In this document: positions 5,239 to 54,109 of the stretch, in pieces
Position numbering within the stretch: the first letter of the stretch is position 1
Layout of the letters: each line of letters opens with the position of its first letter
Source: a virus
Reading direction: 5' to 3' (one strand)
IMG/VR virus record: IMGVR_UViG_3300029305_006221
Coordinates: 1-64,000 of that record
Length of the DNA: 64,000 nt
Translations under genes and position numbers: made by a program
The notes under the pieces: model-generated
What the model saw: only the letters and a program-made list of their open reading frames with translations
The model's database searches: none
Told to the model about the DNA's origin: nothing

Positions 5239-7406
5239 TTATTGAGCTGTATTTATTAAATCTCTAATTGCTGTTACAATCAAATCCAAAGCTTCTATCT
5301 GCTCACGAGAACATTGACTTACGCGCATTCCTTTGCCTAAATAGCTTTCGATTATCTGAGTAATACGAGGCTGCCAATAGGTTTTAAATGTTTCTTCATC
5401 ACTTTGAACTGAAAGATCTTGAATCATTGAATTAAACTGCATCATAAGTTCGTCGAAATCAAGTTCTTTAGATGCGGTATAAAGGTTTGCATCGTTTGTA
5501 GTAAAATGTTCTGAACCTTCTTCTGCAGCCTGCCTATCAATTGCATCACAGATAGCATTTACCAGATTTTGATAAGTGAAATCAATAACATCTGGGGTAT
5601 ATTTGAAACGGCTACCTGCTACATATCGAGGAGTTCCACGCATAAACAATTTAGTAGCGGTTCCTCCTTCAGGCAGATCTACTGTACGAGAATACCCAAT
5701 AATATCTGCCATCCTATTAACGATGTTACGAGGTTTGTTATCGAGAGTAGGGACGATCTGATTGTACTCGTTGCCATTCTGATCCTTAAAAGTCTTATCA
5801 ACTGAATGTGAGATAAGAACTAAACCGTAATTCATTTGAAGAATTGAGCGTAGGCAATCGTCAAATTCTTTAGCCGCCATCTTATAGCCCTTCCCGTAAG
5901 GGATGTCTCCTATTGCATCTACTCCAAAACCGCCATCGGCACGAGGTGCATTTGCGCAAATATATTTTTCACAATAGTCATAAGCTATATCAGCTGTATC
6001 AATAATAATAGTAGAAAAACGCTTTTGGACCTTAGGATCTTTTAATTGGCGAAGAACTTTTCGAAATTCACCCCAGCTATTAACTGGTTGTGCCATAGCT
6101 CCGGGGATTGCATTCCAACCTTTTTCAAAGCCAAGCAATAAGTGATTAGGAAATTTGGTGGCGATTGTAGTTTTACCCTTTTGTTTTTATCTATAGATTT
6201 TTTATTCTATACTCTGGAAATTTCTTTCATTTCTTAATACCGCCTTATATTAAGTCATCGAATGGTTTATTCCATTCCAGTTTAGCATAACTTCTCTTCT
6301 TAAGTCTATCAGAAGTCGTAGACTCGTGGTTTTATTATATTCTATTATTTTGTTCTTTCCACGCTAGATACTTTATATATTTTCTTTGTAAATAAAAACA
6401 TTTTTGTTGGTTCATAAGCTCGTAAAGAGTATTTAAAATCAGTTCAGCTTGTTGAGTTGAATACGTAATGGTATAATAATGTTGTTTCTTAGGCTCTTTA
6501 TAAACTTCACGAGGAATATGAAATACAGTATCAATTAACTGTGTAAAATCTTGAAGAATGTTAGGATCATAAGAACAAATTTCAATACGGCAATATTTAC
6601 CATCATTTTTAAAACATCCATCTCCATCAAAATAGCCTAAGAAAAAAGCTAATTGATATTGTTGTTCAAAAGCAGGGAGTCTCATTCCCTTGTAAGTTTT
6701 ATTGGGAACTATTGAGAATTGTGCTAATTTTTTCTTGTGATTTTCGCTACTCCAAGCCAAAGTTGATACTTGAAAACCTTGATTAGTTTCTTTATCGACG
6801 ATATTTCTTTCAATATCCAGTTCTTTTTGAATTTTTTCCAAAATTTCTCTATCTACTGAACTTAGCCCTAATTTAATAGAATTTCTATCTGGAGTAATAC
6901 TACCATCAGCTGCTAAGAATCCTAGCAACCAAGCCTTTTGTAAAGAATCTATATTATCAAAATAAGAGTGGTTTACTTTTTTCCCTCGTTCTTGATTAGT
7001 AATTCTATTTTGCTCTGCATGGGTTCTAGTTTTAATACCTTGCGCCTATAACATATTTTTTATTTTCTCTGGATAGGTTCCATATTTATTCGCAAGAAAA
7101 GTAAGCGATTTTCCTTCGCTATATAATTGTATCATTTCAGTGATGTCCATATACGGTACATGCTCCTTTCAAAATAATAGGTTCAAAAACTATGCGTTGC
7201 ACGTGGGGTGGCTATTACACCACCCCTTCCGTTCGGGTTATCTCTATAAGACCTTCCCGTTTTTTCTACGATGTTTGCCCTTTAATTTCTTAAAGGGAGA
7301 GCAGTAAAAGTTTACTCTTCGGTTCCCCATAAAAGAATACTGAATATCCTCTAAGGGTGCGACTAACCTAGTGGGGGGCTAGTTCAAGTAAATTAATATC
7401 TGCCAT
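5239..7406 (-). CDS. AAA_24/Sak4-like P-loop ATPase, split by a group I intron. Exon 1 is 7406..7314 (contains one in-frame TAG). Exon 2 is 6177..5239.
   Basis: Exon 1 reads MADINLLELAPH*VSRTLRGYSVFFYGEPKS and exon 2 reads GKTTIATKF.... Joining them restores a perfect Walker A (GEPKSGKTT). IIIDTADIAY and LVLISHS motifs lie downstream. Confidence 0.6.
6178..7313 (-). mobile_element. group I intron (about 1136 nt) inside the Walker-A codons of the AAA_24 ATPase gene; carries a LAGLIDADG homing endonuclease ORF
   Basis: Exon 1 ends in U (..AAGAGU) and the intron ends in G before GGUAAAACU. The exons join in frame. The region is structured and GC-richer than its surroundings. Confidence 0.55.
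6335..7150 (-). CDS. LAGLIDADG homing endonuclease with N-terminal HTH; one in-frame TAG at 7046-7048
   Basis: Two LAGLIDADG motifs (LGFLAADGSI and FLGYFDGDGCF). An N-terminal HTH (MDITEMIQLYSEGKSLTFLANKYG) continues in frame through a TAG. Confidence 0.65.
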
Positions 7407-9945: not shown

Positions 9946-11139
9946 TTAGTTATTCCCACGAGTTTTATTCAGTCCAAAATCATATGTTTGATATAGGTCA
10001 ATATAAAACTTCTCCTTTTCATTTAATTCATTAATACTACATTTCTCTAATATCTCAAAAGTGAAGTTGTCAATACCCTTTTCTCTTGTAAAAGCATAGA
10101 GTTGACTTGTTACAGGGGTATCGATACCCAAACTACATTTAACATGCGTTACCCAACGCTCTTTAATATCTTTAGCCTGACCGATATAGGATATACCAGA
10201 GTCAATGTGAGTTATTTTATATATTCCACTTGCGCCCACCGCACCTACGCGCGCCGCAAGGTCATTGACTTTATCTCTATAGAACGTAGACCATATAAGC
10301 ATGCGTAGAGGTCTTGGTTCGCGCAAGTTATATTCGATACTTTGAAGATATGCCACGTCACGCTTATCTGCTTCATTAAGTTGAAGAGTATAGAATGTTG
10401 CTTGGTTTTTAATCTCTTCTTCGCGCAGTTGAGCTTCCATTGCGGCGGCCCTAGTTGCACGAATTTTTTCTAGTTCTTTACGGATTGAGTCTAGATCGGC
10501 GCGCATTGCCGCCTCTTCTTCTTGCAATTCTTTAGACATTGACTGTTGCTTATCATAAAATAACTATACAAGAGCATCAATATCTTGTCTGCGCTCTTCA
10601 ATTAATCCTTTTTCTCTTGCATCAAGTTCTTGGAGTCTATCAAAGTATAATTGATCAAGAGTATCTATCTCCATATCAAACTCTTGTTCTTTCTATTTGT
10701 ATTCATAATCAAGAGTATCACAGTATTGCTCAAACGATGCGCGGGCTGCAGCTTTTAGGTCGCCTAACATTGTCTCTACAGAGCTGCTTAAAGCGGTGAT
10801 TTGCGCCTCAACTCCTGCTTTTTCAATTTGTTTACTTTGAATTTCATCTATTAATAATAACTTCTATTGAGTTAGTTGATTTAATTTGTCGTAAGAGTTT
10901 TTTGTTTTTTTGCAGTTCTCTTCATACTTTTGAGAAATTTCATTGTTAGATTTTATCAATAAGTCATTTTGAGCTTCTAAACTTTTGCGAGTTGCATGTA
11001 ATGACTAATTAAGTTCTTCCAGCTTCTAATTCTCCTCTGCCGTATAGTGATTAGCTTTTACGGACGTGGTTTTAGTCCATATACCATAAGCAAGACCTCC
11101 CGCTCCAAGAAGAATTGATATTACGCATATTATTATCAT
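9946..11139 (-). CDS. membrane-anchored coiled-coil protein with C-terminal GIY-YIG nuclease domain; five in-frame TAG codons
   Basis: N-terminal TM helix (MIIICVISILLGAGGLAYGIW), then a long heptad-rich region, then GIYKITHIDSGISYIGQAKDIKERWVTH. One frame is open through 5 TAGs and no other stops. ATGA overlap with the upstream gene. Confidence 0.6.
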
Positions 11140-11411: not shown

Positions 11412-11681
11412 TTACTTGCTCTCAGGTGCCTCTGGATCAAAGTCACGACCTGCATCGGTAAGACGAATAAATTTTACCTTCTTATGTGTGTTATCTGCAA
11501 GTTCGACCTCGGCCTCTTCACGAACCATAAGACCTTTCTTTTGAAATGCACTTGTTACAATACCGTTAACACTCTTTACTTCAAGATTAAGAGCTTCTGC
11601 GATATCCTAGGCAGTAAAATCTGCTCCATCATTTTCTTTTACATAGTTAAATACTGCAATTGAGTTGGGCTTAAGTGCCAT
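11412..11681 (-). CDS. winged-helix protein with one in-frame TAG (11607-11609)
   Basis: MALKPNSIAVFNYVKENDGADFTA*DIAEALNLEVKSVNGIVTSAFQKKGLMVREE... A paralogous pattern to the 8639-9022 gene. Confidence 0.5.
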
Positions 11682-11943
11682 AATTTTGTTCTCCTTTTTT
11701 CTCTGTTGAATTTTTATTTTTATTTCTGACAAAGTTATCTTCTAAGAGTCCCTTTGACATAATATAATCTTCCAATGCCATCATCTCCATTAAGGTCATA
11801 GATTCTATGATGGCGCTTATTTTTTCTTCGCACTCATCTTTTTTTTCTGGATCTCGAGCCATGATTTCAAGTGCGGCAACCTCTTTAGCCTTAGGTGCGA
11901 TTTTCTTTTTGAGCGCTCTGCGCTCTTCTCTATTCATAGTCAT
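11671..11943 (-). CDS. hypothetical protein
   Basis: 90-aa ORF. A promoter-like TTGACA-N18-TATAAT lies at about 11945-11985. Confidence 0.35.
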   Translation of the reverse strand: MTMNREERRALKKKIAPKAKEVAALEIMARDPEKKDECEEKISAIIESMTLMEMMALEDYIMSKGLLEDNFVRNKNKNSTEKKGEQNYGT

Positions 11944-14828: not shown

Positions 14829-17165
14829 TTATAGTTTTATTACTGATTTAATAATGCTATTTTTAATCATTATATTACCTTGCGCCGTGCGCGCTAAAAG
14901 CGGAATTTCAGTGGCTGATATACAGATACTGTTTGGTGAACCTACTATGAGAAGGTTATCTTCATCACTGATAAGAGCTGCGCCGGACAGGTCTCCGCTT
15001 CCTATCTTTAGACCTTTACCACCCCTGCCCTGAACAGGGAATTCTTCAATCGGGGTCTTGCGCCCCATGCCATTTGCGCTAAATGTTGCAAGAGTGTCAG
15101 TCTTGTGTTTAATAGGCAATCCAGTCAAAACTTCATCACCATCATTTAACTTAATGCTCTTTACACCAGAAGTTACGCGCCCAATAGGAGAGATATCTTT
15201 CGTTTCAAAGCGAATACTCATTCCCTGCTTTGTAATGATGATAAAATCTTCTTCATTAGCAAAGGTAACAGTGGCAAGCGAGTCACCTTCCTTAAACTTA
15301 ATTGCGGCAATACCTGTTGTGCGTTTAGTTTGAAGGTATTCTTCTAACTTAGTCTTCTTAAAGAGTCCCTGCTTTGTAATAAAGATTACATATTCTGCTT
15401 GGCTCTTGCGATATAGAGATGTCATAGCTACGACTTTTTCATCTGCTTCAAGATTTATCAATGCGCCGATACGTCCACCCTTAGAAGCATTGGTTCCAGT
15501 AGGAACTTTATCTACCAAGAGACGATACATCTTACCCTTATCCGTAAAGAACATCAAGGTATCAACGGTGTTAGTAGAAATCATATCAAGGATTGCGTCA
15601 TCTGTTGTCTTTACCCCTTTGCCATTACGTCTCTGCAATTTAAAGCTACTTGAAGGCACTCTCTTAATGTCACCATTTTGCGTAGCTATTACAACACAAT
15701 CTTCAGGCACTACAGTTTCAAGTTCCTTTTCTGCTTTAGGAAGCTCAATCTGTTCAAGACTGGTTCTACGCGCATCGCCATATTTCTTGACAAATGTAGT
15801 AAGGCGCTCGCGCAATACCTCACGCTGCTTAGTTTCATTAAGGAAGAGAGTGTTTAATTCCTCAACTTCTTTGCGCAATTCTTCTGCCTCTTGATTCAAC
15901 TCAACCTTTTCAAGTCCAGCGAGCTTACCAAGCTTCATATCTACGATAGCTTTTGCCTGTGCTTCGGAGAACTTATAGGTGGCGATTAACGCATCCTTGG
16001 CGGCCGTCGCACTTGCAGATTTCTTAATGAGCGCAATAATGTTATCGATATCTTCCAATGCACGAAGAAGTCCTTCAACGATATGAAGTCTATCCTGTGC
16101 CTTTTCCAAATCAAACTGCGCTTCGTTTTGAATACAAAGCAGATTATGGTTTACATAAATCTCGCAACACTGTTTCAAATTAAGCTCTGTAGGAGTCTTA
16201 TCCACAAGCGCGACTTGGTTATACGAGAATGAGGACTGGAGATCGGTCTTTGCGAACAATTGCTTTACGATAGCGTCAGGGTTTGCGCCTTTCTCACATT
16301 CGATAACGATTCTCATACCCTTCTTATTACTCTCGTCTCTTAAATTCTCAATACCTTCAAGTTCTTTTGCATCACAGAGCTTTCCAATTTCTGCAAGAAG
16401 AGCTTCTGTTTGAACTCCATAAGGTATTTCATAAAAGACGATATTTTGCTTTTCAATATTATATCTACCACGAACCTTTACTGTTCCGTGACCTGTTTTC
16501 ATTATTGCAGGGATGTCATTTTTGTTTATTACAACACCACCTGTTGGGAAGTCAGGTCCAGGCAACATAGGCTCAGCGCCATCCATATATGCGAAAATTG
16601 CATCTGCGACTTCGGTTAAGTTGTGTGGCGCCCAGTTACAAGCAATAGCCCATCCAATACCCATATTCGGATTGCAAAGTAAGTTAGGAAACAATGCAGG
16701 AAGAGTCATAGGCTCTTCTGTTGTTTCATCATAATTGCGCATAAAACGCACATTGCGCTTCTTTAATCCTTGCAATAGTCCGTCTTCTGTAAACTTAGCA
16801 AGGCGCGCCTCAGTATAACGATAATGCGCCGGGCCGTCGCCTCCCACATTACCCATGTTTCCGTGGAAATCAATCAGCGGATATCTCATTTCCCAAGGCT
16901 GTGCAAGGCGAACAAGCGCGCCGTAGATGGAGCTATCTCCATGAGGATGGAACCTAGCCATTACATCACCGACGATATTTGCACACTTAACATGAGGCTT
17001 ATTGGAGCTTCTACCCGAATCATATGCGCCATAGATAATTCTTCTTGCAACGGGTTTCAAACCGCTTGTAGCATCTGGTATCGCGCGGTCTTCATTCACG
17101 GCGGCCGCGTACTCAATACAGTTATTTGATAACTCTTGTGTTAATTCAACTTTATTATACTCCAT
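14829..17165 (-). CDS. type II topoisomerase A subunit (GyrA/ParC-like)
   Basis: AIPDATSGLKPVARRIIYG and the catalytic Tyr region. GGAGG RBS. 778 aa from MEYNKV. Terminator hairpin at 14803-14823. Confidence 0.8.
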   Translation of the reverse strand: MEYNKVELTQELSNNCIEYAAAVNEDRAIPDATSGLKPVARRIIYGAYDSGRSSNKPHVKCANIVGDVMARFHPHGDSSIYGALVRLAQPWEMRYPLIDFHGNMGNVGGDGPAHYRYTEARLAKFTEDGLLQGLKKRNVRFMRNYDETTEEPMTLPALFPNLLCNPNMGIGWAIACNWAPHNLTEVADAIFAYMDGAEPMLPGPDFPTGGVVINKNDIPAIMKTGHGTVKVRGRYNIEKQNIVFYEIPYGVQTEALLAEIGKLCDAKELEGIENLRDESNKKGMRIVIECEKGANPDAIVKQLFAKTDLQSSFSYNQVALVDKTPTELNLKQCCEIYVNHNLLCIQNEAQFDLEKAQDRLHIVEGLLRALEDIDNIIALIKKSASATAAKDALIATYKFSEAQAKAIVDMKLGKLAGLEKVELNQEAEELRKEVEELNTLFLNETKQREVLRERLTTFVKKYGDARRTSLEQIELPKAEKELETVVPEDCVVIATQNGDIKRVPSSSFKLQRRNGKGVKTTDDAILDMISTNTVDTLMFFTDKGKMYRLLVDKVPTGTNASKGGRIGALINLEADEKVVAMTSLYRKSQAEYVIFITKQGLFKKTKLEEYLQTKRTTGIAAIKFKEGDSLATVTFANEEDFIIITKQGMSIRFETKDISPIGRVTSGVKSIKLNDGDEVLTGLPIKHKTDTLATFSANGMGRKTPIEEFPVQGRGGKGLKIGSGDLSGAALISDEDNLLIVGSPNSICISATEIPLLARTAQGNIMIKNSIIKSVIKL

Positions 17166-20159
17166 ACTTAGCCTCCTTACTGTGATCCTGAATAAATTTC
17201 TTTCTTGCTGCAACTCCTACGCCCATCAGCTGATCAAACAAAACATCTGCTTTCTTTGCTTCTTCAACCGTAACCTGATTCAACACTCTTAAGCCTGGGT
17301 CTACAAGAATTTCAGTCTCGTCCTCTGACATCTCGCCTAATCCTTTGAATCTATTGACCTGATACTTTTTTCCTCTATTTTTCTCTTGAAACTCAGCCAA
17401 CTCTTTATCGTCTCTTAAATACAGATAAGTATCTTTACCCATCGTAATCTTATAGAGCGGCGCCACAAGTGCATATACATATCCATTTTCAATTAAAGCG
17501 GGGCAAAAATTCCATATAAATGTGTAAAACAAGTTTCTAATGTGTGCCATTAAACATTAGAATTGAGTATTTCTCCTGACTATCTTTTACTCTCTGTTTG
17601 AGAGGAAACCATTTCAGCATTTAATGGACTTCGTTTCCTAAAATCCAACTGCGTACCAATAGCAGCCTTACTTCCTTGCCCAGAAGGCTTAAGGAATAGT
17701 CGATACAGGTCAAATATTAACCCATTTTTTTTCTTTTTTCTTGTAAATAGGAAGGTTATCATAATAACGACCCCATAAAATCATTTGGAAAGTTTGATAA
17801 GCGACTCTGTTTTTATAATCTTCATAAATTTGCTTCGCAGTTTCATTAATATAACGAGTGCGAATAGCAATAATTTCTTCATCTGTAAAATGAGCATCTT
17901 TACCTTTTGAGCCACGGCTATTTTCATAGATGTAATAATCTTTATTCTCTTTGGTAAAAACCTCGGGCATAATGTGTGCCCAAGTTCTACCCTGCCAAAC
18001 AGATTGAAAGTTACTAAAAGTAGTTTTATCTTTAAATAATTCATATACATCTTTTTGGCGAAGATGCTTAGCGTATGCTTTACGAATTATCATAACATCT
18101 TCTTCGTTTAATTTTGCATTACCATTTAAAGAACCAACAGATGCTTGTTCTCCTCCGGGATTACAATTGTATCCATTTGGATAACTTTTATAATAAGCAA
18201 TCCAATACTGTTCTCTTTCATTTAATTGCTCTAATGAACATTCTTCTAATATCTCAAAATCAAAAGCTTCAGTTCCATATAAACCAATAGCTACGTCTAC
18301 TGGGATATCGGTTCTATCTCCTCTTTTATGCTCAGAGAAGCGCCTTTTTATATCATTAGTTTGTCCAATATAACACTTTCCATTAGATTTTTTAGTAATT
18401 TTATAAATTCCTATCATAATATATCTCCTTTTTGTATTTGGAGATAAGAGTTAATAAATGTTCCCACGGGATTACCAATACTCAGGCTTCCCCGTTAGCA
18501 TTGAAAAATTCTTATCTCTGTTCTATTATTATATGAAAATCGTACTAATCACATATTCTAATTTTAACCAAAAATTTTAAATTTTTCAATACCCTGCTGG
18601 TTAGCAGTAAAGTTTTTCATCGGCGCAACTTAAACTCGTTCACCGTCTGCATCCGCATCGGCAGCTATAATAATCTTCCCATAGCGCAGTGAGTCTTTAT
18701 CATACGTTAGCTTCATTGTTTTCGGATCGGTTTTAAGACCAAAGGCTTCAATCATAGTCATAATTTCTGCATTCTTTTGAATTTTATCTAAGGCTGCTTT
18801 TTGCGTATTTAATATCTTTCCGCGCACGGGCAGCACTGCTTGAAACTCATTATCGCGGGCAGCTTTCATATTGCCGGAGGCGCTATCGCCTTCCGTCACG
18901 TAAATTTCACAGTTAGCGCGAACCTTTGAATAACAGTCTGCTAATTTTGAATCAAACTTAAGCGCCTTTTCCTTTTTCTTTTTATCGCCTCGAGCCGCGT
19001 CGCGCGCCTTTTTAGCAGCTTCTCTTGCTTTCCTTGCAGATAAGGCTTTTTCAATAATTGTTTTAAAGGCATTTTTATAAGAAGATGTTAAATCTCCAAG
19101 AGCTTGAGTTGTTAGCTTCTGCGCATAAGTTCTACCTTCAGAAGAACTAAGCTCCTCTTTATTTTGTCCTTTAAAAACAGGATCAATCATCTTAAAGTTT
19201 AGAATTAAAATCATACCTTCTTCATAGTCTGAACCAGTAAGATTTTCTTCTTTTTCTTTAATTAACTTATTTTCTCTTGCAAAATTATTTAATCCCATTG
19301 TCCAAGCTGTTTTAAAACCTGTCAAATGAGTTCCTTTTTCTTGGGGAATATTGTTTGTATATAGTTTAATAACAGAAGAATAAGATTTACTATATCCAAT
19401 AGCAACCTCGAGTTGAAACTTACCTTCTTCGCTATTGAAGTAGAAAGGATCAGCTATAAACTCTCCTTTTGGATTTAAATAATCCATATAATCTGCAAGT
19501 CCGCGCTCAGAATAGAAATCTTCTTTTGTATCTAAAACGGTATAAATAAAATGTAGCCCTTTGCATAAAAAGCTAAATTCTCGAATCATATCTCGAATAC
19601 CTTTAATATCAAACTCTACTGTTTCAAGGACTTCTGGGTCAGGATAGAATTCAACAGAAGTTCCAGTGATCGATTTGTCAATTTTATTCTCTTTATGAGA
19701 AATAAATTGACCTCTTGAAAATTCTACGATTTCTTCAATGCCTTCGCGGCGGGTTTTTACAATCATAGATTTAGATAAAGCATTTACAGCCTTACCTCCA
19801 GTTCCGTGTTCTCCGCCAGAAGTATTATATCCAGATTCTCCAGTAGCATTATCAAATTTACCGCCAGTATTTGCAATACCAAAACAAGCTTGAAGCACAC
19901 TACAACCACTTGGATGTTTACCATGCGGAATGCCGCGCCCATTATCTTCTATGCGAATACCATTGTTTGGTAAAATAGTTACTTTTATTTGATTACCAGC
20001 TCCATTTAAATATTCATCAATACTATTAGAAATTATCTCTTTTACACAATGAAGTAATCCTTTTGCATCCTTACTTCCTATATACATACCGGGATACTTT
20101 CGGATATGCTCAAAGTAATCAAGAGATTTAATATTATCTGCTTGATAATTTTGTGTCAT
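17155..20159 (-). CDS. type II topoisomerase B subunit (GyrB-like), split by a group I intron. Exon 1 is 20159..18642. Exon 2 is 17547..17155.
   Basis: Exon 1 carries the GHKL ATPase (YIGS, NGRGIP) and TOPRIM EGDSA. It ends ...IIIAADADADG. Exon 2 starts AHIRNLFYTF...KGLGEM. The join recreates the conserved DxDxDG-HIR block. Confidence 0.75.
17548..18641 (-). mobile_element. group I intron (about 1094 nt) in the gyrB-like gene, carrying a GIY-YIG homing endonuclease
   Basis: U before the 5' splice site (GGU|GAA). G before exon 2 (..UUUAAUG|GCACAC). Structured GC-richer 3' region at 17580-17700. Confidence 0.6.
17710..18417 (-). CDS. GIY-YIG homing endonuclease (I-TevI-like), intron-encoded
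   Basis: MIGIYKITKKSNGKCYIGQTNDIKRRFSEHKRG. 235 aa. Confidence 0.75.
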   Translation of the reverse strand: MIGIYKITKKSNGKCYIGQTNDIKRRFSEHKRGDRTDIPVDVAIGLYGTEAFDFEILEECSLEQLNEREQYWIAYYKSYPNGYNCNPGGEQASVGSLNGNAKLNEEDVMIIRKAYAKHLRQKDVYELFKDKTTFSNFQSVWQGRTWAHIMPEVFTKENKDYYIYENSRGSKGKDAHFTDEEIIAIRTRYINETAKQIYEDYKNRVAYQTFQMILWGRYYDNLPIYKKKEKKWVNI

Positions 20160-20287: not shown

Positions 20288-20908
20288 TTAATCATCGCCT
20301 TGTTTATAACTTGTATCACAGAATAAGAATGGGAATACATCTGCTTTAGTTAAAAAGCTAATGCCAAAGAAAGAAAGCGCAATGGTTTCTATTAACCAAA
20401 TCTAAATACGGAAATAAGGTAATAACAAAATGCCAAATGAAGCAATCATTCCAATTCCGCAAATTCTATAGATAATATTACGCGCCTTTTTCTTTTTAGT
20501 CATTTCTCCGCTTGATTTTGTAAACAAAAATAAAGAGTTGTAAGAAAGAAGACCGAAGAATACAATAGCTGATACATTATGAATGGTTGCACTAATGTTT
20601 ACAGGAATCTAAAAGGTTCCTACTAGCGCCGGCGCTAATGCATCCCAACAGGGACAGAAACAGATAAGCAAGCCACATATTCCTGCAAGTGTCAGAATAA
20701 TATCATCCAATTTAGTATATCCTCGGTAGGAAATCAAAAGAAAAGATGCTGAGCATAAGATTCCCATAAAAGGGGTTATACATTGAGCGATATAATAAGT
20801 GGCGGAAATAGATGAGGGTATGCCGCCGAAGAGTAAAGCAACAATCCAAGGAAGTGCCATACTTAATATACCAATTAAAATGCGCAAGCGCGCGGTGTTT
20901 AATTTCAT
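20288..20908 (-). CDS. polytopic membrane protein with two in-frame TAG codons (20609-20611, 20402-20404)
   Basis: The hydrophobic ORF continues in frame ...VGTF*IPVNISATIH...PYFRI*IWLIETIALSFFG... down to a TAA at 20288. Confidence 0.55.
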
Positions 20909-21455: not shown

Positions 21456-21488
21456 ATTGAAACTCCTTATTAATAAATAAAATAAAAA

Positions 21489-21510
21489 CTCCTTTGAAAA
21501 TTCAAAGGAG
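21489..21510 (-). terminator. terminator immediately after the suppressor tRNA
   Basis: CUCCUUUGAAUUUUCAAAGGAG hairpin plus a U-run. Confidence 0.55.
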
Positions 21511-21519
21511 TTTAAATAA

Positions 21520-21595
21520 TGGCGGCGGAGGTGAGATTCGAACTCACGCATATGCACTTTTAGAGAGTGCCGCCTTCCCGCTTGGCTACTCCGCA
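21520..21595 (-). tRNA. amber suppressor tRNA, anticodon CUA, tRNA-Gln-like D-arm
   Basis: Cloverleaf folds. Anticodon loop is CU-CUA-AA. D-arm AGCCAAGCGGGAAGGC matches the tRNA-Gln D-arm. T-arm is GUGAG/UUCGAAU/CUCAC. CCA is encoded. Own promoter (21625-21653) and terminator (21489-21510). Confidence 0.8.
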
Positions 21596-21624
21596 ATATT
21601 GATTTCTTAACTTATTACATATAT

Positions 21625-21653
21625 ATTATAATTAAATTTTTTTAAGAAATCAA
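21625..21653 (-). promoter_or_regulatory. dedicated promoter of the suppressor tRNA (TTGATT-N17-TATAAT)
   Basis: -10 lies about 30 nt upstream of the tRNA 5' end. Confidence 0.55.
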
Positions 21654-21677
21654 TTAAATTAATCAATAGGGAACTGG

Positions 21678-22535
21678 TTATGAATTATAATATTCCCAAT
21701 GATATCCCGCAGCTGTTTGCTGCAAACCCATAACGCAATGCTAAATGTCTCCTCCATATTTTCGTTCCGCATCTCCAATGCTTAAAAATATTTCACCCGT
21801 TTCTAAACAAATTATAGATCGAGCTCGGCCTGTTTTTTTACGACGACTCTCAATTATTTCGATTGTAGTTATATTATCATCTGCTTTCACCCAATGTTTA
21901 CCATTAATGGATAGCGCTTGACCTAAAACACAACGATTGATACCTTTTCTATCGCAATGTGTTTTTCGTGCAGCTTCACTAATAGTAGGATAAATTTGAC
22001 CTGTCTCTAAACACTTAACAGCATAGCCGTATGCATTATCATGTTTTTGCTTTTCTTCAGGCGATAAATTTTTTCGCCAATTCTATAATGCTTGTACGCA
22101 CTATTCTTTAAGCTCAGGATACTATTGCAACCTTTCTTTTGTTTTTATAGATTGTTTAATATGTTCTTCTTCTCGCTAATATCTTATTATTTGTCCTTGT
22201 GACATATTTTGACGAGCTTCATTTGATAAAGCATCTCTACATCCATCTTTAATTCTTTTATTATAGCCCTTTTCTGGAAGATAAGTTTCGTATTGTAAAA
22301 TATATTTTGTTTCTAGTTCTAAAGCTTCTTTTTCAGACAGATTTTCATGTAAAATAGAATGGATAAATCCTTCTTGCCATCCGTCTTCTTGTATATCTCG
22401 CCAAAAACGCTAATTTTTGTTATACCCGTTACCATTACGCCATCTAGCCGTGGCAGAAGCAGAAGTGATACCAAAGTATTTCTAACCAGTCTTTTTTCTT
22501 TCGTGCATATAAACAAGATATTTTTTTTGATCCAT
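21678..22535 (-). CDS. free-standing GIY-YIG-family homing endonuclease with tandem C-terminal DNA-binding modules; six in-frame TAG codons
   Basis: MDQKKYLVYMHERKKTG*KYFGITS... Two repeats of a CLETGxIF..S..EA.RK....I..C..G...A.GYHW module. All interruptions are TAG. Confidence 0.55.
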
Positions 22536-22536
22536 A

Positions 22537-23034
22537 TTAGGTTTCTCCTTTGTATTTAATATTATACTCTTCACAAAGCTTGTTAAATTGTTTTATATTA
22601 CCTGTAGCTAAGCAATCTGCTAATTCATTACCTAATATATTTGCATGTCCTGGTACTTGCAGAATTTGCGTGGCAAAACTAAGTTGTTGATATAATTTAT
22701 AAGCTTCTTGTATATATATTAAATTTTGAATAGGTTTTTTATCTTTTTTTGTCCAATTATTCTTAGCCCAGGTATCGGCCCATTGAGTAATGCTATTAAC
22801 AACATAGGCGCTATCAGAGTAAATAACGAATTGATGTTGTGGATTAGACTCTGCATAATTGAGGGCGCAAATCATTGCTTTAAGTTCCATACGGTTATTG
22901 GTTACATTATCTTCAGAATCGTGTTCTAAGAAAAGAATTTCAGAATCGTCTCCGCTCATCACGATCATTCCCCAACCACCTGGACCAGGGTTTCCGCGAC
23001 TAGAACCATCTGTATATGCATAGTATTTAGCCAT
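22537..23034 (-). CDS. rnhA: ribonuclease HI
   Basis: YTDGSSRGNPGPGGWG, MELKAMICAL, VPGHANILGNELADCLA. 165 aa. Confidence 0.85.
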   Translation of the reverse strand: MAKYYAYTDGSSRGNPGPGGWGMIVMSGDDSEILFLEHDSEDNVTNNRMELKAMICALNYAESNPQHQFVIYSDSAYVVNSITQWADTWAKNNWTKKDKKPIQNLIYIQEAYKLYQQLSFATQILQVPGHANILGNELADCLATGNIKQFNKLCEEYNIKYKGET

Positions 23035-23641
23035 TAGATTTCTCCTTTTCTAAAGACTCTTTTACACCCTTATAAAACTCTTCTGTTAATTCACGAGATT
23101 CATACCATTCATAAATCCATGCTAAATCAATATCTTGTAATTTTAACCCATGAGTTAACTGTTTTAATGCGTGGGTAATAAAATCTTTGGTATTTTGATG
23201 CATTGCTAAAGGCTTTTCACATTTTTTACACCACCATTCATATTCCTTTTGGTAAGTGAAATCCTTCCCCATATAAGCGCGCCCGGCGCCGAGATAATCA
23301 CAAAGCATTTCAACAGCATCTTTATAAGGCATTTGAAGCGGCTGTCCACCGTTATCAAAGTTGTCTTGGTGATATTCGTAGTGATGAGAATTACGCCCTT
23401 TATGATGTAGCCATGCTTTAGAGACGCCTTTATCTTCCTTACAGGCATCAATAGGAGAGCGATTACCTTGATAATATCTCACCGACTCCCAGAATTCAGT
23501 CGGTGAGAACTTGGACATATCGTGTTTAATTCCGCGCCAAGGGATACCTGCTTTACAACAATAATAAAATACCCAATATTTATGCTTACATATTTTTCCA
23601 AAATGTCGAAAAGTATTTTTAATAGTAATTCGAGTCTTCAT
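23027..23641 (-). CDS. hypothetical protein (His/Cys-rich)
   Basis: 204-aa ORF. Confidence 0.4.
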   Translation of the reverse strand: MKTRITIKNTFRHFGKICKHKYWVFYYCCKAGIPWRGIKHDMSKFSPTEFWESVRYYQGNRSPIDACKEDKGVSKAWLHHKGRNSHHYEYHQDNFDNGGQPLQMPYKDAVEMLCDYLGAGRAYMGKDFTYQKEYEWWCKKCEKPLAMHQNTKDFITHALKQLTHGLKLQDIDLAWIYEWYESRELTEEFYKGVKESLEKEKSNG

Positions 23642-23921
23642 TTAATCCTGTTAACCTTTCTGCTTTATATCCATTATCATTTATTACCATAAAATCAACA
23701 TCATCATACCAAACAATAACTTGATGACATGGGAAAGTTTCTTTTAGCATCTTTCTTAGTTCGCGTAATTCATCTATATCATATCCGCTATCTTTAGAAA
23801 AGCGTGCAACAAGAACAGAATTTCGTTCAAGAGTAAGGGTATTTAGATTTAATGGGGTAATATTAGGCGGCTCATTATCTAAACCCTAGTTAATAATATT
23901 CGTCTTATAAGTATCTATCAT
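23619..23921 (-). CDS. hypothetical protein with one in-frame TAG (23886-23888)
   Basis: MIDTYKTNIIN*GLDNEPPNITPL... stays open to a TAA. Overlaps the downstream start. Confidence 0.4.
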
Positions 23922-25889: not shown

Positions 25890-26105
25890 TTATTCTTCTG
25901 TTACTTCAACTTCTTGTGCTTCTTCTACATCGGGAGCAGTTGCTTCAGCTTTAACCAGCCCCTCTAAGCATTTGAAACTAAAATTTTTATGTTTAAATGC
26001 GGCGAACTTAGGCCTATTAACAATACGAACCACTACGCCTTCGCGCACATGGGTCTTGCCTATCGGATCGGGACCATCATAAAACTGCTCTGCCTTAAAA
26101 CCCAT
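25890..26105 (-). CDS. RNA ligase C-terminal segment (motifs IV/V) in the -1 frame relative to 26060..27295
   Basis: EGVVVRIVN (motif IV) and FKHKNFSFK (motif V) with an acidic tail. Overlaps the upstream ORF by 46 nt. Confidence 0.45.
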   Translation of the reverse strand: MGFKAEQFYDGPDPIGKTHVREGVVVRIVNRPKFAAFKHKNFSFKCLEGLVKAEATAPDVEEAQEVEVTEE

Positions 26106-27295
26106 TCACCCGCAGAAATAGTAGGATCGTCTGCTGACGCGCAGTGGTCAGGAATAATACCTTTCCACATTACAGGAACGGTTTTTACTCCCATCTGTTC
26201 ACAGCGATAACGCATGAAGTCAGGAGTATACTCAACTACATCACCATCCTCGTTAGTCATAGTCATACGGTAGATATAGATATCTGACTGAGGGACTTCC
26301 ACAGAAATAGAAAAAACTCCATTATCATCATTGCCATACATTGTCTTTAAACCATCAGGAGCGCATCCATAAGAAAAACGAGTAGTTTCACCATACTGTT
26401 TAATAAAATCTTTATCATTTAGCTTTTTATTATTTGCATCTCCCATAATAGGCTTTCCATCGGTTGTAAAACCAACTACCTCGTAGTAAATAGTCTCGCC
26501 CTTCCAAAGTTTTCCTTCAAAAGTCTTTGAATGTTTTTCTCTAAACTCATTAGAGCCATAAAACCCACCTTCATAATCTTCAAGAACTACGCGGCGGGTG
26601 CCAGAAACACCGCCCCAGTCATATATAGGAGTACCTTCTTTTCGAGTGATCTTATCCCAAAGGCTACGCTTGTATCCTTTTAGAGTAGGCAGATAACCAG
26701 TTCTCTGACTAGTGCCATGTAGCTTAAGCGTGATCTCAATCTCGTCACCAGGCTTAAAAGCGCCAAGGTTATAAGCTAACTGCTCAGTGTCAGCATGCTC
26801 CTTGAACAAAGGCGCGGTAGAGACCTTCTTCTTACGAGTTCTGTTTCCATCTGATACATAACCGCGACGAGTATTAGAACGAGGAATATACTTGCAACAA
26901 ATCTCGTGTCCATTAACAAGACCTTCGATTATATCTCCCTCTTTAAGATGCGCGGCGGCTGCCTCATCTTCGAAGCAATAGTCGAGCGCAGATAAAGGAA
27001 GGAAAATACCATCTGATTTCTCTCCGCGCAAACGAATAGCGGTTATATTGCGTTTGTCAGGATCCATGTAGCCACCTATATTCACTCCATTTTCGTCTTT
27101 CTTACGAAGTAGATTATTATGTTTAGCAAATTCTACTGATACCTGACCATCGGTAGGTAGATAGATACCAAGCTGTCCCTCTTTATAATCAAGAGAGACG
27201 CATATAGTATTTCCAAAACAGTCTGCAAGAAGCAGTCTATCTGCATTGGGATGAGGGCGCACATTTTTAAGTGTAGTTATATAAGCCTTATACAT
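26060..27295 (-). CDS. RNA ligase (Rnl2-like), N-terminal part: tRNA-binding (Trbp111/Myf-like) domain plus adenylyltransferase motif I. The ORF ends at a TAG and continues in the -1 frame.
   Basis: N-terminal VRPHPNADRLLLADCFGNTICVS. Motif I KLHGTS (KxHG). 411 aa. Confidence 0.55.
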   Translation of the reverse strand: MYKAYITTLKNVRPHPNADRLLLADCFGNTICVSLDYKEGQLGIYLPTDGQVSVEFAKHNNLLRKKDENGVNIGGYMDPDKRNITAIRLRGEKSDGIFLPLSALDYCFEDEAAAAHLKEGDIIEGLVNGHEICCKYIPRSNTRRGYVSDGNRTRKKKVSTAPLFKEHADTEQLAYNLGAFKPGDEIEITLKLHGTSQRTGYLPTLKGYKRSLWDKITRKEGTPIYDWGGVSGTRRVVLEDYEGGFYGSNEFREKHSKTFEGKLWKGETIYYEVVGFTTDGKPIMGDANNKKLNDKDFIKQYGETTRFSYGCAPDGLKTMYGNDDNGVFSISVEVPQSDIYIYRMTMTNEDGDVVEYTPDFMRYRCEQMGVKTVPVMWKGIIPDHCASADDPTISAGEWVLRQSSFMMVPIR

Positions 27296-41431: not shown

Positions 41432-41520
41432 TGGTGGGCGATGAGGGAATCAAACCCACTCGAGTCACAATGACGCTAGATTTACAGTCTAACCCGCCTA
41501 TCTTAACGGTTTAATCGCCC
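41432..41520 (-). tRNA. tRNA-Tyr (GUA), class II
   Basis: Acceptor GGGCGAU/AUCGCCC-A-CCA. Anticodon loop CU-GUA-AA. Variable arm stem GUCA/UGAC. Confidence 0.65.
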
Positions 41521-42203: not shown

Positions 42204-42416
42204 GCATGCCTTGATGCATTTAACGCTCATCAAGTAGCGTGGTGTTTTCTCTCGGATTACTCCCTAACCGCCCTTTGATTATGCCACCTCGCAACTCACA
42301 AACGGGTAATTTGTTGCGCCATATCTTCATTAAATACCCTACACCGTCACTCCATCAACGGCGGGTTTATCTAAACGATTTTACTAATATAGGATTATCG
42401 TGAACCTATACATAAG

Positions 42417-42490
42417 AGGGACTTAACGGACTCGAACCGTTGCCACATAGCTTATCCATTCTACTGCTCTACCATCTGAGCTAAGGTCCC
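42417..42490 (-). tRNA. tRNA-like gene, atypical: the anticodon stem cannot be paired and there is no CCA. May be a pseudogene.
   Basis: Good acceptor, D-arm (GCUC/GAGC) and T-arm (AACGG/UUCGAGU/CCGUU), but the central UGGAUAA loop region lacks a stem. Confidence 0.3.
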
Positions 42491-43654: not shown

Positions 43655-43807
43655 CTAATCTTCCATAGAGCGACAGTCGTGCGCCTTTTCACGCTTGCGA
43701 TTATGTTTCTTCTTACTTTCAATTACTCTTGTATGCAGAGAGGGCGAGTTGCGCATTCTTTCTTTACGCATAGCTTGAGTCTCTTTTGCTTCAAGCGGCT
43801 TTTTATT
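43655..43807 (-). CDS. small highly basic protein
   Basis: Start MSNKKPLEAK. Arg/Lys-rich. Confidence 0.3.
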   Translation of the reverse strand, partial: NKKPLEAKETQAMRKERMRNSPSLHTRVIESKKKHNRKREKAHDCRSMED

Positions 43808-43906
43808 ACTCATTTCCTCTCTCCTTTTGTTTATTAACACAAACTCGACCACACGCGTCCCACCGTCCTGTTTCATACGCCTAAGCCTTGTCCGTCGGTT
43901 GTGTAT

Positions 43907-49893: not shown

Positions 49894-50355
49894 ATGAAAA
49901 TTGGATTGCTTTTATTATTAGCTTGTTTAATCTATATTGGAATTGACTATGGGCGGCGTGTATACAACGATGGGCGCAATTAGGTTATTTTTGAACCTTT
50001 TGAACTTACACGATATATTTTTATATTAGGTAAAAATGTTGGAAAAGTGCAAGAGTATGTTGATTTAAGATTGGCTTCATTAAAAAACAAAAATATTAAA
50101 TTACTTACCACTACTAATTTAAATAATTCAAAACTATATCGCTTTGAAAATGGTGATGAAATGTGGGTAGTTCAATATGAAAAAGGAACGCTTCCAACCT
50201 TAACCAAAGAAGAAATTGAAAACTATAATAACAAGATATTTTTTGACTGCAATTTACCGCGTGCGACTGTTGCAGAAACAATAATTAAATTAGGATTAGA
50301 AGATTATGCCATTACTGTTGGCATATGCAAAGGAGATGATGAAAATGCCGTATAA
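49894..50355 (+). CDS. secreted or membrane-anchored protein with one in-frame TAG (49981-49983)
   Basis: MKIGLLLLLACLIYIGIDYGRRVYNDGRN*VIFEPF... continues in frame into the annotated 50047 ORF. Plus-strand promoter at 49828-49856. Confidence 0.45.
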
Positions 50356-50731
50356 GAAAACAAATGAAGCTTGGTTTGGAGATAGCTTTAATAGAGATAA
50401 TACTATGTGTACCTACACTATTGCTAATAATGATTTGCAATCGATCTCAGCGGCGCTTGATGGTTTAACTGGGACTGCGAATAATTTTACAATAACCGCA
50501 GATTGCGCCAAGGGAATAGATACAAGTGCTATAGCTACTGTAAAATCTAATGATTCTGCACTTGAATGGAAGGATACTGTTTCTATTAGTTTAGTAGATC
50601 TTTTAAGTGATAAACTTGAAAATTTACAAGCGCAAATTGACAACTTAAAGAAGACTATAGAAAAGCGTGGAGTAGGATTAAGTATCAGACCGGCGCTTAA
50701 GACATTGAAGTATCAAAGAGAGGTAGAATAA
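50345..50731 (+). CDS. hypothetical protein
   Basis: Start MPYKKTNEAW. 128 aa. Confidence 0.4.
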   Translation: MPYKKTNEAWFGDSFNRDNTMCTYTIANNDLQSISAALDGLTGTANNFTITADCAKGIDTSAIATVKSNDSALEWKDTVSISLVDLLSDKLENLQAQIDNLKKTIEKRGVGLSIRPALKTLKYQREVE

Positions 50732-51058
50732 ATGAATTATTTTGATATGGGTAAAGGAGCTTATGTAAGGACAGGTTTACTCAATGAAAGATCTATTGTA
50801 AAACCCATAGAGTATGCGACAAAAGAAGAATTAAAAGAAGAGATAATATTGGCGCAAAATGCGCGTTCTAAGATGACTAATAAAATAGGACAGAATGCAG
50901 AATATATTGAAGATTTATATAATAGACACAATATAATGCGTAGTGATTTAAATGATTTGATAAATTATGTTGATTATTTAAAAAGATATATTAATGAACA
51001 AGAGTCTGCGCCAAAGGTCGGAAAAAGGCGCAGAAGAGTGACTATATTACAAGGTTAA
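50732..51058 (+). CDS. hypothetical protein
   Basis: 108-aa ORF starting immediately after the upstream stop. Confidence 0.4.
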   Translation: MNYFDMGKGAYVRTGLLNERSIVKPIEYATKEELKEEIILAQNARSKMTNKIGQNAEYIEDLYNRHNIMRSDLNDLINYVDYLKRYINEQESAPKVGKRRRRVTILQG

Positions 51059-51276
51059 AAGAGATGAAAAAAGGCGCTGATTAGTAAAAATTGGCGCCTT
51101 ACTAACAAGAAGGATGTTTTTTGTAATTTGTAATTACAAATTTGTGTTTCGACAAAAATACGACAAAAAAGCAGTAGAATTATACAAAATAAAGCATTAT
51201 TCAAGCAAAAAGTTTGGACATTTTCAAATAAAATGCTTGAATTAATTTTTATATATAAATAGAGGAGGATAAGAGT

Positions 51277-51465
51277 ATGACATTAAAAGAGGTGGCCGCT
51301 TTGCTCGGCAAAAGTGAATCCACATTAATTAACTCTTTTCCGCGAACATAGGCTAATTTGCGCAAGAAGGGAATTATACTTATGAAGTGGGGAAGAGGCA
51401 AAGATGCCGAATATGAAATAGAGTATGAAAAATTTGATTCTCTTGAAGAAGAGGATGAAGAGTAA
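51277..51465 (+). CDS. small HTH protein (excisionase/AlpA-like) with one in-frame TAG
   Basis: MTLKEVAALLGKSESTLINSFPRT*ANLRKKGIILMKWGRG... with an acidic tail. AGAGGAGGA RBS. Confidence 0.45.
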
Positions 51466-51484
51466 CTAAAAGGAGATACCAATT

Positions 51485-51685
51485 ATGCCAAAACACGAAG
51501 AACAAGAGTATGCTTTTGTTTATCGAAAGCCATACGCAATGAAGATGATTGAGAAAGGACATTAGGTCTTTTCTACAATGCCCAATCCAAAGAATAATAG
51601 ATTGATTGTTTGGATTTTTTATAAAGATGAGACCTTCCAAAAAGATTTTGATAAGATTATAGAGGAGGGTTTGCGCAATGGCTGA
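51485..51685 (+). CDS. small protein with one in-frame TAG
   Basis: MPKHEEQEYAFVYRKPYAMKMIEKGH*VFSTMPNPKNNRLIVWIFYKDETF... Overlaps the next start (ATGGCTGA). Confidence 0.4.
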
Positions 51686-52064
51686 TATTACATTTGTAGT
51701 TCATAAGGATTGGCTTGATGCCATTGCAATGTTACCTATTGATCAACAAGATAAGATTATTGCGGATATTATTAGACATGGAACAGAATTGCCTGCCGCA
51801 CATGCAGAAGATCCAAATATTGTTTCTTATGTTAATCTATTGCGTGGTCGAATAGATGCAAGTAAAGATGATTATGCGCGGAAGATAGAAAATGGTAAAA
51901 CCAATGGGCGCAAGAAAAAGATAGATAGTAAAGAGGTTTGGCGCCTTGCAAGGACAGGAATAGGCGCAGCGAAAGTGGCCGCAGAATTAGGAGTATCTGC
52001 CGCCTCTATATATCATGATGAAGGTTGGGAGAAAAGAAATGATCCTATGTGGGGATTAATGTAA
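51678..52064 (+). CDS. hypothetical protein with a C-terminal HTH
   Basis: AAKVAAELGVSAASIY segment. 128 aa. Confidence 0.45.
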   Translation: MADITFVVHKDWLDAIAMLPIDQQDKIIADIIRHGTELPAAHAEDPNIVSYVNLLRGRIDASKDDYARKIENGKTNGRKKKIDSKEVWRLARTGIGAAKVAAELGVSAASIYHDEGWEKRNDPMWGLM

Positions 52065-52349
52065 GTAGCAGCTTTACAAATGTTTGTAAAAATGATTTTA
52101 CAAGTTTTGTAAATTTGTAAAAATGATTTTACAAAAAGTAGTAGGATTTACAAATAATTTCTACAAAAATTTTTGTATGAAGTGGCATATTTGTACAAAT
52201 TCTTTGTAATTTGTAATTTGTTATCTTATATGTTCAAATTTACAAGAAATTTGTACAAATTCTGTACTCTTTTTACAAACAAAATGCTACGCATTTTGAA
52301 TGTAAATATAATTGCGCTGTCCCGGGATGAACGGGAGAAAGGAGAAGAT

Positions 52350-52739
52350 ATGTGTGGAATTTATATAATTGCAGATGCGAGTGGAAGGGTATACTATGTA
52401 GGTAAGAGTAAACATATAAAAAAAAGAGCGAAGTAGCATCTGTATGAAATGAGTAGGGATGAAGATGATTGGAGAAAGAATAAAATGTATTGGATACTTG
52501 GAAGATTATATTATACGCAACCTATAGATTTAGGATTATATGTAGCTGGAGAATGTAAAGAAGAGTGGTTGGACTTTCACGAATAGAGAATAATAAAATA
52601 GCTATAGCCCGTGTTAAATTCGATTGTGCCACCAGGATGTAGAAGAGTTATTCATAAGATAGACACTGTAACAGATGCAATAGTATATGCGGATTAGAAT
52701 GGATGCTGGGACTTTAATCACTTGAAAAGAATATGGTAA
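52350..52739 (+). CDS. mini GIY-YIG (URI-domain) nuclease with five in-frame TAG codons
   Basis: MCGIYIIADASGRVYYVGKSKHIKKRAK*HLYEM... stays open through 5 TAGs to a TAA. Confidence 0.5.
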
Positions 52740-52995
52740 GGAAGGAGAGAAGGTTAGGTAGGATTGAGGAAAATCAAAGAAGATTGGATAAGATTGGTGA
52801 GTTGTAGCTAAAATTATAAAAAATGTGTTAAAATTATAGAAAATGTGAAGTTGCGGTGGAACCTAATCCAACCCCACTCTTCTTCTCCCTCGTTACCGTC
52901 TTCCTTATAGAGATTAGTATCTCTAATTTGACTTATACAAAAAAATATGTTATAATAATTATAGAAAATAAGAAAGGATTAAAAAGTGAACACCA

Positions 52996-54070: not shown

Positions 54071-54109
54071 TGGGTTTGGTTTATTGATTATACTCCATTA
54101 CCAGAAGAT

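Follow-up and report, generated by a model that had tools for sequence, protein, structure and literature searches.

The phage phAss-1 (GenBank OQ749652) has a genome of 135,976 bp and translates TAG as Gln in 41 open reading frames (ORFs; approximately 28%), including the terminase. It carries three suppressor tRNAs with the anticodon CUA (tRNA-Sup(CUA)), a large tRNA set and no dedicated aminoacyl-tRNA synthetase. Members of its proposed genus, Phassvirus, are reported to share 82-86% nucleotide identity with it, and a wider monophyletic group around it includes Enterococcus phage EF1 (Babkin et al., PMC10607447). The Agate phages are approximately 127-154 kb long, have predicted Firmicutes hosts and encode a suppressor tRNA. 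In this clade, standard-code and TGA-recoded genomes are found at >90% average nucleotide identity, and some members are TAG-recoded. Their recoded stops are concentrated in structural and late genes and sparse in replication genes, a group I intron endonuclease in an early gene is preferentially recoded, and two TAG-recoded members encode release factor 2 (RF2) (Borges et al., bioRxiv 10.1101/2021.08.26.457843). A temporal-gate model of recoding was proposed in the same study. For crAss-like phages, PMC9523058 reports that metaproteomic data support the use of code 15. In this study, we analysed 64,000 nucleotides of a virus, positions 1 to 64,000 of the IMG/VR virus record IMGVR_UViG_3300029305_006221 (the window), with the gene at 9946-11139 as the focal gene. 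A preliminary description, made from the letters alone, had proposed that TAG is translated as Gln in this and other genes of the window.

We put the probability at roughly 0.93 that this phage decodes TAG as Gln in the pattern of code 15, with a suppressor tRNA and a timing gate as part of the explanation. As in phages of the code-15 type, TAG lies within conserved genes and at Gln sites, TAG is not used as a terminator, and a tRNA(CUA) is encoded. The likeness to phAss-1 extends to the genome size (135,988 bp for the source contig, Ga0318466_10002506), the TAG recoding including that of the terminase, the tRNA-Sup(CUA), a large tRNA set, the apparent lack of a dedicated aminoacyl-tRNA synthetase and a homologous terminase (42% amino-acid identity); phAss-1 also encodes a homologue of part of the focal protein (32.5% over residues 204-396). 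However, phAss-1 has three suppressor tRNAs, compared with one seen in approximately 80 kb of this genome, and it has no match to the major-vault-protein-like (MVP-like) protein of the window. The genome has the size (approximately 133-138 kb), the TAG recoding and the tRNA-Sup(CUA) of Phassvirus, but not a substantial genome-wide nucleotide identity to phAss-1, as megablast of 35 kb of the window against deposited phages including OQ749652 gave no match. Because a nucleotide-level match is missing, the two phages belong to different genera of the same broad lineage. By its published description, the Agate clade is similar in size class, mixed codes, animal-gut origin, Firmicutes hosts, suppressor tRNA, late-gene bias and the recoding of an intron or homing endonuclease. 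It differs in that the detailed published analysis was made on TGA-to-Trp genomes, whereas the window phage is TAG-to-Gln, and in that RF2 was not found in the approximately 80 kb read.

The focal gene (minus strand) is a single frame of 398 codons, which ends in TAA (9946-9948) and contains no internal TAA or TGA. Its five TAGs are codons 38, 45, 92, 149 and 192 (window positions 11026-11028, 11005-11007, 10864-10866, 10693-10695 and 10564-10566). The 397-aa product has an N-terminal transmembrane helix, a coiled coil and a C-terminal GIY-YIG domain. Each TAG-delimited segment had a positive coding score in the proposed frame and lower scores in the other five frames. The GIY-YIG domain recognised by Pfam (residues 304-385) lies 3' of all five TAGs, so Pfam alone is no proof of read-through in this gene and comparative evidence was needed. 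A scan of IMG/VR gave 31 related loci. In the distant relatives (L006-L023, 35-43% identity), the transmembrane helix, the coiled coil and the GIY-YIG domain are encoded in one unbroken, TAG-free ORF. In the close relatives (L001-L005, 88-92%), TAGs 38, 45 and 92 are kept, codon 149 encodes K, and codon 192 encodes K or Q. The dN/dS of codons 1-192 was 0.10-0.13 against three relatives, which indicates that purifying selection acts on the protein encoded by the frame with the TAGs. The unbroken ORF of the relatives and the dN/dS agree with the preliminary description, which had placed the three elements in one frame across five TAGs. Relatives recoded at TGA carry in-frame TGA on the Trp residues of LRMLIW and ERW in the focal protein. 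With TAG read as Gln, peptides that span TAG sites include EENQKLEELNQSL in the focal protein and FFYQR in the terminase. In three of the close relatives (L003, L004 and L005), the orthologue is split within the GIY-YIG domain by an insertion of approximately 1.28 kb (residues 1-325, then 324-396), located at about 6975-8260 in L004/L005 coordinates and at 2626-3911 in L003.

The terminase large subunit, which lies past the window end on the same contig (581 aa, 7 TAGs; phrog_2 matches residues 56-437), was used to determine which amino acid TAG encodes. An alignment of 120 full-length database terminase proteins gave Q at 5 of the 7 TAG columns; this call was set aside as partly circular, since TAG had been rendered as Q in these translations. 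Standard-code translation of the loci that encode them differs from the deposited proteins, and TAG lies under many of the Q residues. For this reason, codons were read from the DNA of the terminase loci of 80 relatives (L122-L201). The non-TAG codons of the relatives were CAA or CAG in 75/75 cases at position 64, 78/78 at position 222 and 79/79 at position 473 (232/232 for the three positions pooled). Gln codons were the majority at positions 190 (48) and 246 (54), position 59 was variable (12 Gln codons), and position 480 was mostly Lys (77). In the reciprocal comparison, of the 27 unique terminase sites with TAG in relatives, 11 are Q in the window genome (p = 3e-9), as are 5 of 14 such sites in window genes (p = 1.5e-4). 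TAG is a sense codon interchangeable with CAA/CAG at invariant Gln positions, and the TAG-to-Gln code of the preliminary description holds at the codon level. Each of the four Trp residues of the terminase is matched by an in-frame TGA in relatives, whose TGAs also fall on Trp at 8 of 19 window sites (p = 5e-11). No in-frame TAA was found anywhere in the homologue alignments.

Interrupted frames could also be explained by decay, in which accessory and homing-endonuclease genes had collected nonsense mutations. Mobile nucleases and small unknown ORFs account for many of the genes with TAG, and the window contains one truly disrupted gene, a frameshifted RNA-ligase-like gene. The preliminary description had reported TAG genes free of other stops and had argued against pseudogenes on that ground; the first part stands, and the RNA-ligase-like gene shows that the window is not free of disrupted genes altogether. 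However, the interruptions are solely TAG, although off-frame TAA and TGA are commoner than TAG. The essential terminase carries seven TAGs, TAG positions are conserved among relatives, TAG stands on invariant Gln codons, and the TAG-bearing half of the focal gene has the low dN/dS given above. Pfam and PHROG domains, alignments and purifying selection all continue across the TAGs, and in-frame TGA was found only in other relatives, on Trp. The pseudogene explanation is effectively refuted by these data. Identical TAG positions were also present in independent assemblies of other samples (L001-L005, L119-L121), which shows that the TAGs are not assembly artefacts.

The preliminary description had spoken of at least 13 genes with in-frame TAG and never TAA or TGA, and had listed 12. 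All 12 listed frames are interrupted by TAG only, with no internal TAA or TGA, and at least two further genes (34344-35000 and 53624-54313) carry TAG. For 8 of these 12 genes, homologues align across the TAGs, and a ninth (52350-52739) is covered by a Pfam GIY-YIG match that spans codon 29. Raw stop-to-stop ORF totals for each recoding did not discriminate and were dropped, because the DNA is AT-rich and any recoding lengthens ORFs; genes were called instead from log-odds of codon usage, with 18 long standard ORFs as the training set. With TAG as sense, the coding score of the window rose from 6100 to 6240 and the coding density from 73.2% to 77.6%. The score fell when TGA (6009) or TAA (5509) was read as sense. 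In the adjacent 10 kb of the contig, TAG as sense raised the score from 825 to 944 and the density from 63% to 75%.

A suppressor tRNA of 76 nt with the anticodon CUA was found by ARAGORN on the minus strand at 21520-21595, where the preliminary description had placed it, and it scored 53.2 bits with the Rfam tRNA model. It folds into a canonical cloverleaf, with a normal D-loop containing GG, a 5-bp anticodon stem and a canonical T-loop. A promoter-like site (TTGATT-17 nt-TATAAT, 21625-21653, minus strand) lies approximately 30 nt upstream, and a terminator-like hairpin with a 12-bp stem and a T run (21486-21513, minus strand) lies directly 3'; both are consensus matches only. The acceptor end has a U1-C72 mismatch and the Gln-like discriminator G73; in a close relative, the syntenic suppressor tRNA combines U1-U72 with G73. 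GlnRS, the glutaminyl-tRNA synthetase, recognises a weak first pair (1-72), G73 and U35, as in the E. coli amber suppressor supE. In supE, likewise, a tRNA with a Gln-type acceptor end and CUA gives Gln at UAG in competition with release factor 1 (RF1); the window suppressor differs in being phage-borne, with phage genes that evolved dependence on it, and in that its charging by GlnRS is inferred. Whole-sequence identity did not discriminate between isotypes (Thr, Met, Gln and Asn tied as best matches at 0.72), and acceptor-end features were used instead. A set of 285 tRNAs from this phage family contains 12 tRNA-Gln, 11 of which combine G73 with a U1-A72 or A1-U72 pair. All Lys and Tyr tRNAs of the family have G1-C72 and A73, and the Glu tRNAs have G1 with C72 or U72, with A73 in all but one.

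These features bear on the explanation that TAG is sense but stands for another residue (Lys, Glu, Trp, Tyr or pyrrolysine). Relatives most often have Lys at terminase position 480 and at codon 13 of an ATPase gene, Glu is the second commonest window-genome residue under the TAGs of relatives (7 of 27 unique terminase sites), and ARAGORN labelled the tRNA as 'Pyl'. That label reflects the anticodon only and was rejected. A tRNA-Pyl has a short D-loop, a 6-bp anticodon stem and a 3-nt variable loop; the window tRNA is unlike it, and there were no Pyl-related Pfam matches among the scanned proteins. The 232 codons at three terminase sites are all CAA or CAG, and the U1 mismatch with G73 sets the tRNA(CUA) apart from the Lys, Tyr and Glu tRNAs of the family. 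We consider another residue very improbable. None of the 23 tRNAs of the window is a tRNA-Gln with the anticodon UUG or CUG. Pfam scans of the window proteins of at least 125 aa and of ten listed TAG-bearing genes gave no release factor or aminoacyl-tRNA synthetase.

Stop codons were counted at the ends of orthologous genes, as well as in the window. At most 1 of 84 window genes ends in TAG. TAG-recoded relatives used TAA 48, TGA 29 and TAG 1 time (n = 78), TGA-recoded relatives TAA 70, TGA 0 and TAG 15 times (n = 85), and standard-code relatives TAA 98, TGA 40 and TAG 14 times (n = 152). TAG is not used to end genes in this phage. The small ORF 43655-43876 is the remaining, ambiguous candidate for a TAG stop. 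The RNA-ligase-like gene was also tried as a true TAG terminator, as a 411-aa ORF at 26060-27295 followed by a poor extension of 52 codons; it was rejected because the gene is frameshifted and relatives read on into a conserved C-terminus. This C-terminus (FYDGPDPIGKTHVREGVVVRI...) is in the -1 frame in the window and ends in TAA near 25905. The whole gene (PHA02142 OB-fold; 25905-27295, minus strand) lacks 4 nt near 26095 (GGGTTTTAAG/GCAGAG) compared with L033, L035 and L038, and no canonical slippery heptamer was seen at the site. The shift may reflect a pseudogene, a fault in the assembly or programmed frameshifting.

The TAGs are unevenly distributed. The window has 29 in-frame TAGs against 507 CAA/CAG codons (5.4%), and 13 of the 16 genes of at least 250 codons are TAG-free. 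Three GIY-YIG genes hold 17 of the 29 TAGs, with binomial enrichment of p = 1e-3 for the focal gene, 2e-6 for 21678-22535 and 2e-5 for 52350-52739. The genes for the primase, DnaB, ligase, gyrase, sigma factor, MVP-like protein and DNA polymerase (pol) III alpha are TAG-free. Beyond the other end of the window, TAG is missing from the helicase and DNA pol III alpha genes and occurs once in the 593 codons of the RecJ-like gene. Past the 64000 end, the next 10 kb of the source contig holds a divergently transcribed, TAG-dense packaging and late module, which encodes the terminase, a YonG-like protein (406 aa, 6 TAGs) and a late sigma-factor-like protein (395 aa, 2 TAGs). Pfam scans of the late-module proteins gave no matches, and PHROGs did. 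Of the relatives whose structural module has been sequenced, L119 is the closest (95% identity in the terminase), and approximately 20% of its late-strand Gln codons are TAG. The recoded codon is enriched in late genes compared with early and replication genes, as the preliminary description had expected for late and accessory genes, with exceptions described below.

This distribution is also relevant to the view that the host itself reads TAG as sense and the phage merely matches it, with no phage-driven switch and no timing gate. In favour of this view, the contigs of relatives are in varied bins of metagenome-assembled genomes (MAGs). However, TAG is just 5.4% of the putative Gln codons and strongly clustered by gene, most long genes avoid it, and the phage has its own suppressor tRNA. 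Sister phages at 60-90% terminase identity are TGA-sense or standard, which fits phage-side switching in standard-code hosts (10.1101/2021.08.26.457843). We therefore consider a TAG-sense host very improbable.

We believe that the suppressor tRNA would act as follows. The tRNA(CUA) would have its own sigma-70-type promoter and be transcribed from it by the host RNA polymerase, and the host glutaminyl-tRNA synthetase would charge it with Gln by reading U35, G73 and the weak 1-72 pair. The charged tRNA would then compete with host RF1 at UAG. The TAG-free genes listed above, from the primase to DNA pol III alpha, would be translated at once. Full-length products of the TAG-bearing genes, such as the terminase, the YonG-like and sigma-like proteins and the three GIY-YIG nucleases, would appear only after the tRNA had accumulated. 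Recoding would thus serve as a translational timing gate.

Several points weigh against decoding as Gln or against the timing gate. Two TAG sites are mostly Lys in relatives (terminase 480, and ATPase codon 13 with K 9 and Q 4), and at variable sites the alignment by itself would also allow Lys. The D-arm of the tRNA(CUA), which the preliminary description had called tRNA-Gln-like, is also like those of the Lys and Pro tRNAs of the family. Genes for RF2 and Gln-tRNA synthetase were not found in the approximately 80 kb of genome read. For the gate, L119 has several large structural genes without TAG, including a YonB-family gene, and two replication/recombination genes, RecJ-like and the AAA_24 ATPase, have single conserved TAGs. 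The earlier statement that replication genes lack TAG is correct for the primase, helicase, ligase, topoisomerase, sigma factor and MVP-like genes, but it is not absolute, as the RecJ-like gene and exon 1 of the AAA_24 gene have one each. The host assignment given below rests solely on the MAG bins that hold related contigs. Gln incorporation and the timing of expression are predictions from the sequence.

A different role for the recoded stop would be that of mainly a licence on nucleases and selfish elements and not only a lysis timer. This idea is based on the share of TAGs in the three GIY-YIG genes and on the position of a 7-TAG endonuclease beside a sharply diverged suppressor tRNA; we regard it as unlikely. 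In this reading, the five TAGs of the focal protein, which is family-wide, syntenic and membrane-anchored, would hold back its production and point to a membrane-tethered nuclease that acts late. The endonuclease gene, at 21678-22535 (minus strand), encodes a free-standing GIY-YIG/NUMOD1 homing endonuclease whose GIY-YIG domain (residues 5-89) spans TAGs 18 and 42; the gene has seven TAGs, not six as counted in the preliminary description. It is located in an insertion of approximately 930 nt (about 21642-22570) just upstream of the tRNA(CUA), and this insertion is missing in the close relative L033. When window positions 21599-22570 were compared with L033 16251-16474, the tRNA(CUA) was much more diverged than its surroundings, and its 5' half was unalignable. 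Identity to L033 was 70% in the block that extends from inside the tRNA to the downstream gene, compared with 76-81% in the flanking gene blocks. This divergence could be an endonuclease-associated tRNA replacement, and the endonuclease and the suppressor tRNA might travel as a unit and spread the code change between phages. Rfam scans near the tRNAs gave no HDV-like (hepatitis delta virus) or theta ribozyme.

GC skew and the tRNA genes place the majority of window genes on the minus strand, and all listed TAG genes at or below 23921 are on this strand. The N-terminal part of a RecJ-like DHH exonuclease (1-633) has one conserved TAG, with Q there in 6 of 12 loci of relatives; the full gene of 593 codons is present in L116. 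Exon 1 of the AAA_24 ATPase (7314-7406; exon 2 is 5239-6138) has one TAG at codon 13, where relatives with a continuous ORF carry the K and Q counted above and L001-L005 carry TAG. A LAGLIDADG endonuclease (6335-7150, TAG at codon 35) lies within the insertion of approximately 1.17 kb that splits the ATPase gene. A small conserved protein (11412-11732) has one TAG, and 25 relatives align across it. A multi-pass membrane protein (20288-20908) has two TAGs, with two relatives only aligning across. A 100-aa protein (23619-23921) has one TAG, with Q there in relatives. A structural or tail-like protein of 218 aa (34344-35000, minus strand), absent from the earlier list, has one TAG at codon 18, and a PHROG match (residues 2-81) spans it. 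A plus-strand island of small genes (49894-54313) has TAGs in five genes (49894-50355, 51277-51465, 51485-51685, 52350-52739 and 53624-54313). The gene at 52350-52739 encodes a small GIY-YIG protein with five TAGs, its Pfam domain (residues 1-48) spans TAG 29, and an alternative start is possibly at 52230. The gene at 53624-54313 was also absent from the earlier list, and its extension beyond the TAG scores positive for coding. For 49894-50355, 51277-51465 and 51485-51685, the support is the ORF and its coding potential. No homologue alignment crosses the TAGs of the island, in which the Pfam match in 52350-52739 is the independent support.

The Pfam families precomputed on the source contig and its relatives include YorF, SPbeta_YorH, YonG_N, YonD_N, YonB, YomW/V/U and DNA pol III alpha. 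The terminase matches those of Geobacillus virus E3, Enterococcus phages H1/EF1 and phAss-1 at 42-45%, and those of large phages of Bacillus and related hosts at 30-36%; the match in Brevibacillus phage Sundance is annotated as 'putative protein YonF'. SPbeta-type gene families occur together with a genome size near 134 kb, and the relationship is distant, at the family level only. From these sequence matches, the window genome appears to be a tailed phage of approximately 136 kb in a large Firmicutes-phage lineage distantly related to SPbeta, EF1 and phAss-1. The MAG bins of related contigs are mostly Bacillota, from gut samples (rumen, yak, sheep and rabbit). This gives a weak indication of the host, and gut Bacillota are the most likely candidates.

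In the 80 terminase loci, TGA was in frame in 35, TAG in 19 and neither in 26, which indicates three coding states in this phage family. TAG-sense, TGA-sense and standard-code relatives coexist at 60-90% terminase identity. The TGA-recoded sisters include L006, L010-L014, L018, L019, L021, L022, L027 and L028, in addition to the 35 terminase loci. Because TGA is in frame at conserved Trp and never ends their orthologous genes (0/85), these sisters are TGA-to-Trp recoded (code 4). They share with the window phage orthologous genes, the same gene order, conserved in-frame stop positions and the loss of the recoded codon as a terminator. They differ in the stop codon and the amino acid, and the window genes contain no in-frame TGA.

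Annotation with the standard code fragments this genome. The Joint Genome Institute (JGI) terminase consists of pieces of 217, 118 and 58 aa, the focal gene is called as 197 aa, and the late-module genes appear as fragments of 58-261 aa. Because standard-code calls are fragmentary, translation with table 15 is needed. Published work already covers the recoding, how it probably operates and its presence in the broad lineage, and the enrichment in endonucleases has a precedent too, so our finding confirms and extends known work. With this phage, a large family of animal-gut phages with coexisting codes gains a well-supported TAG-to-Gln member, and because three codes coexist at 60-90% terminase identity, the family is well suited as a natural system for work on code switches. 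The observation of the preliminary description was confirmed, and codon-level comparison now supports its interpretation.

Two genes of the window are split by insertions. The AAA_24 ATPase gene (5239-7406, minus strand) contains the insertion of approximately 1.17 kb with the LAGLIDADG endonuclease, which is missing in L001 and L002; L005 has a different insertion in the ATPase, at residue approximately 144 of exon 2. The gyrB-like topoisomerase gene (17155-20159, minus strand) is split into 18630-20159 and 17155-17550 by an insertion of approximately 1.08 kb, which carries a TAG-free GIY-YIG endonuclease (17710-18417); L033 and L007 have an unsplit gene. Rfam scans at both split genes matched no group I intron model, so the insertions are regarded as introns by inference only.

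Other tRNA-like features were also observed. An 85-nt class II tRNA with the anticodon GUA (41436-41520, minus strand) was missed by ARAGORN and was below the Rfam gathering scores. Its match to the tRNA-Sec model (38.1 bits) was considered as a tRNA-Sec or opal suppressor and rejected, since the anticodon GUA indicates a tRNA-Tyr. A weaker tRNA-like match (27.1 bits) lies at 39159-39230. The tRNA at 42416-42490 (minus strand; 45.5 bits with the Rfam tRNA model) was given an 8-nt anticodon loop with the four-base anticodon GGAU by ARAGORN, and similar calls in relatives have UUUU. It could be a quadruplet decoder or a mis-called Ile tRNA.

The PHROG families phrog_15503 (245 aa) and phrog_24618 (230 aa), both annotated as 'unknown function', match the N- and C-terminal parts of the terminase (E = 3.5e-61 and 1.2e-39) and look like terminase fragments from standard-code calling of recoded phages. 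The 830-aa MVP-like protein (30265-32757, minus strand) contains major-vault-protein shoulder and repeat domains, and among deposited phages it matched only LR756500/501/503 'uncultured phage' (462-735 kb) at 40% identity. A protein with a PemK/MazF-type toxin domain is encoded among small genes near the window end (62748-63080, minus strand) and in L113 at 10728-11060.

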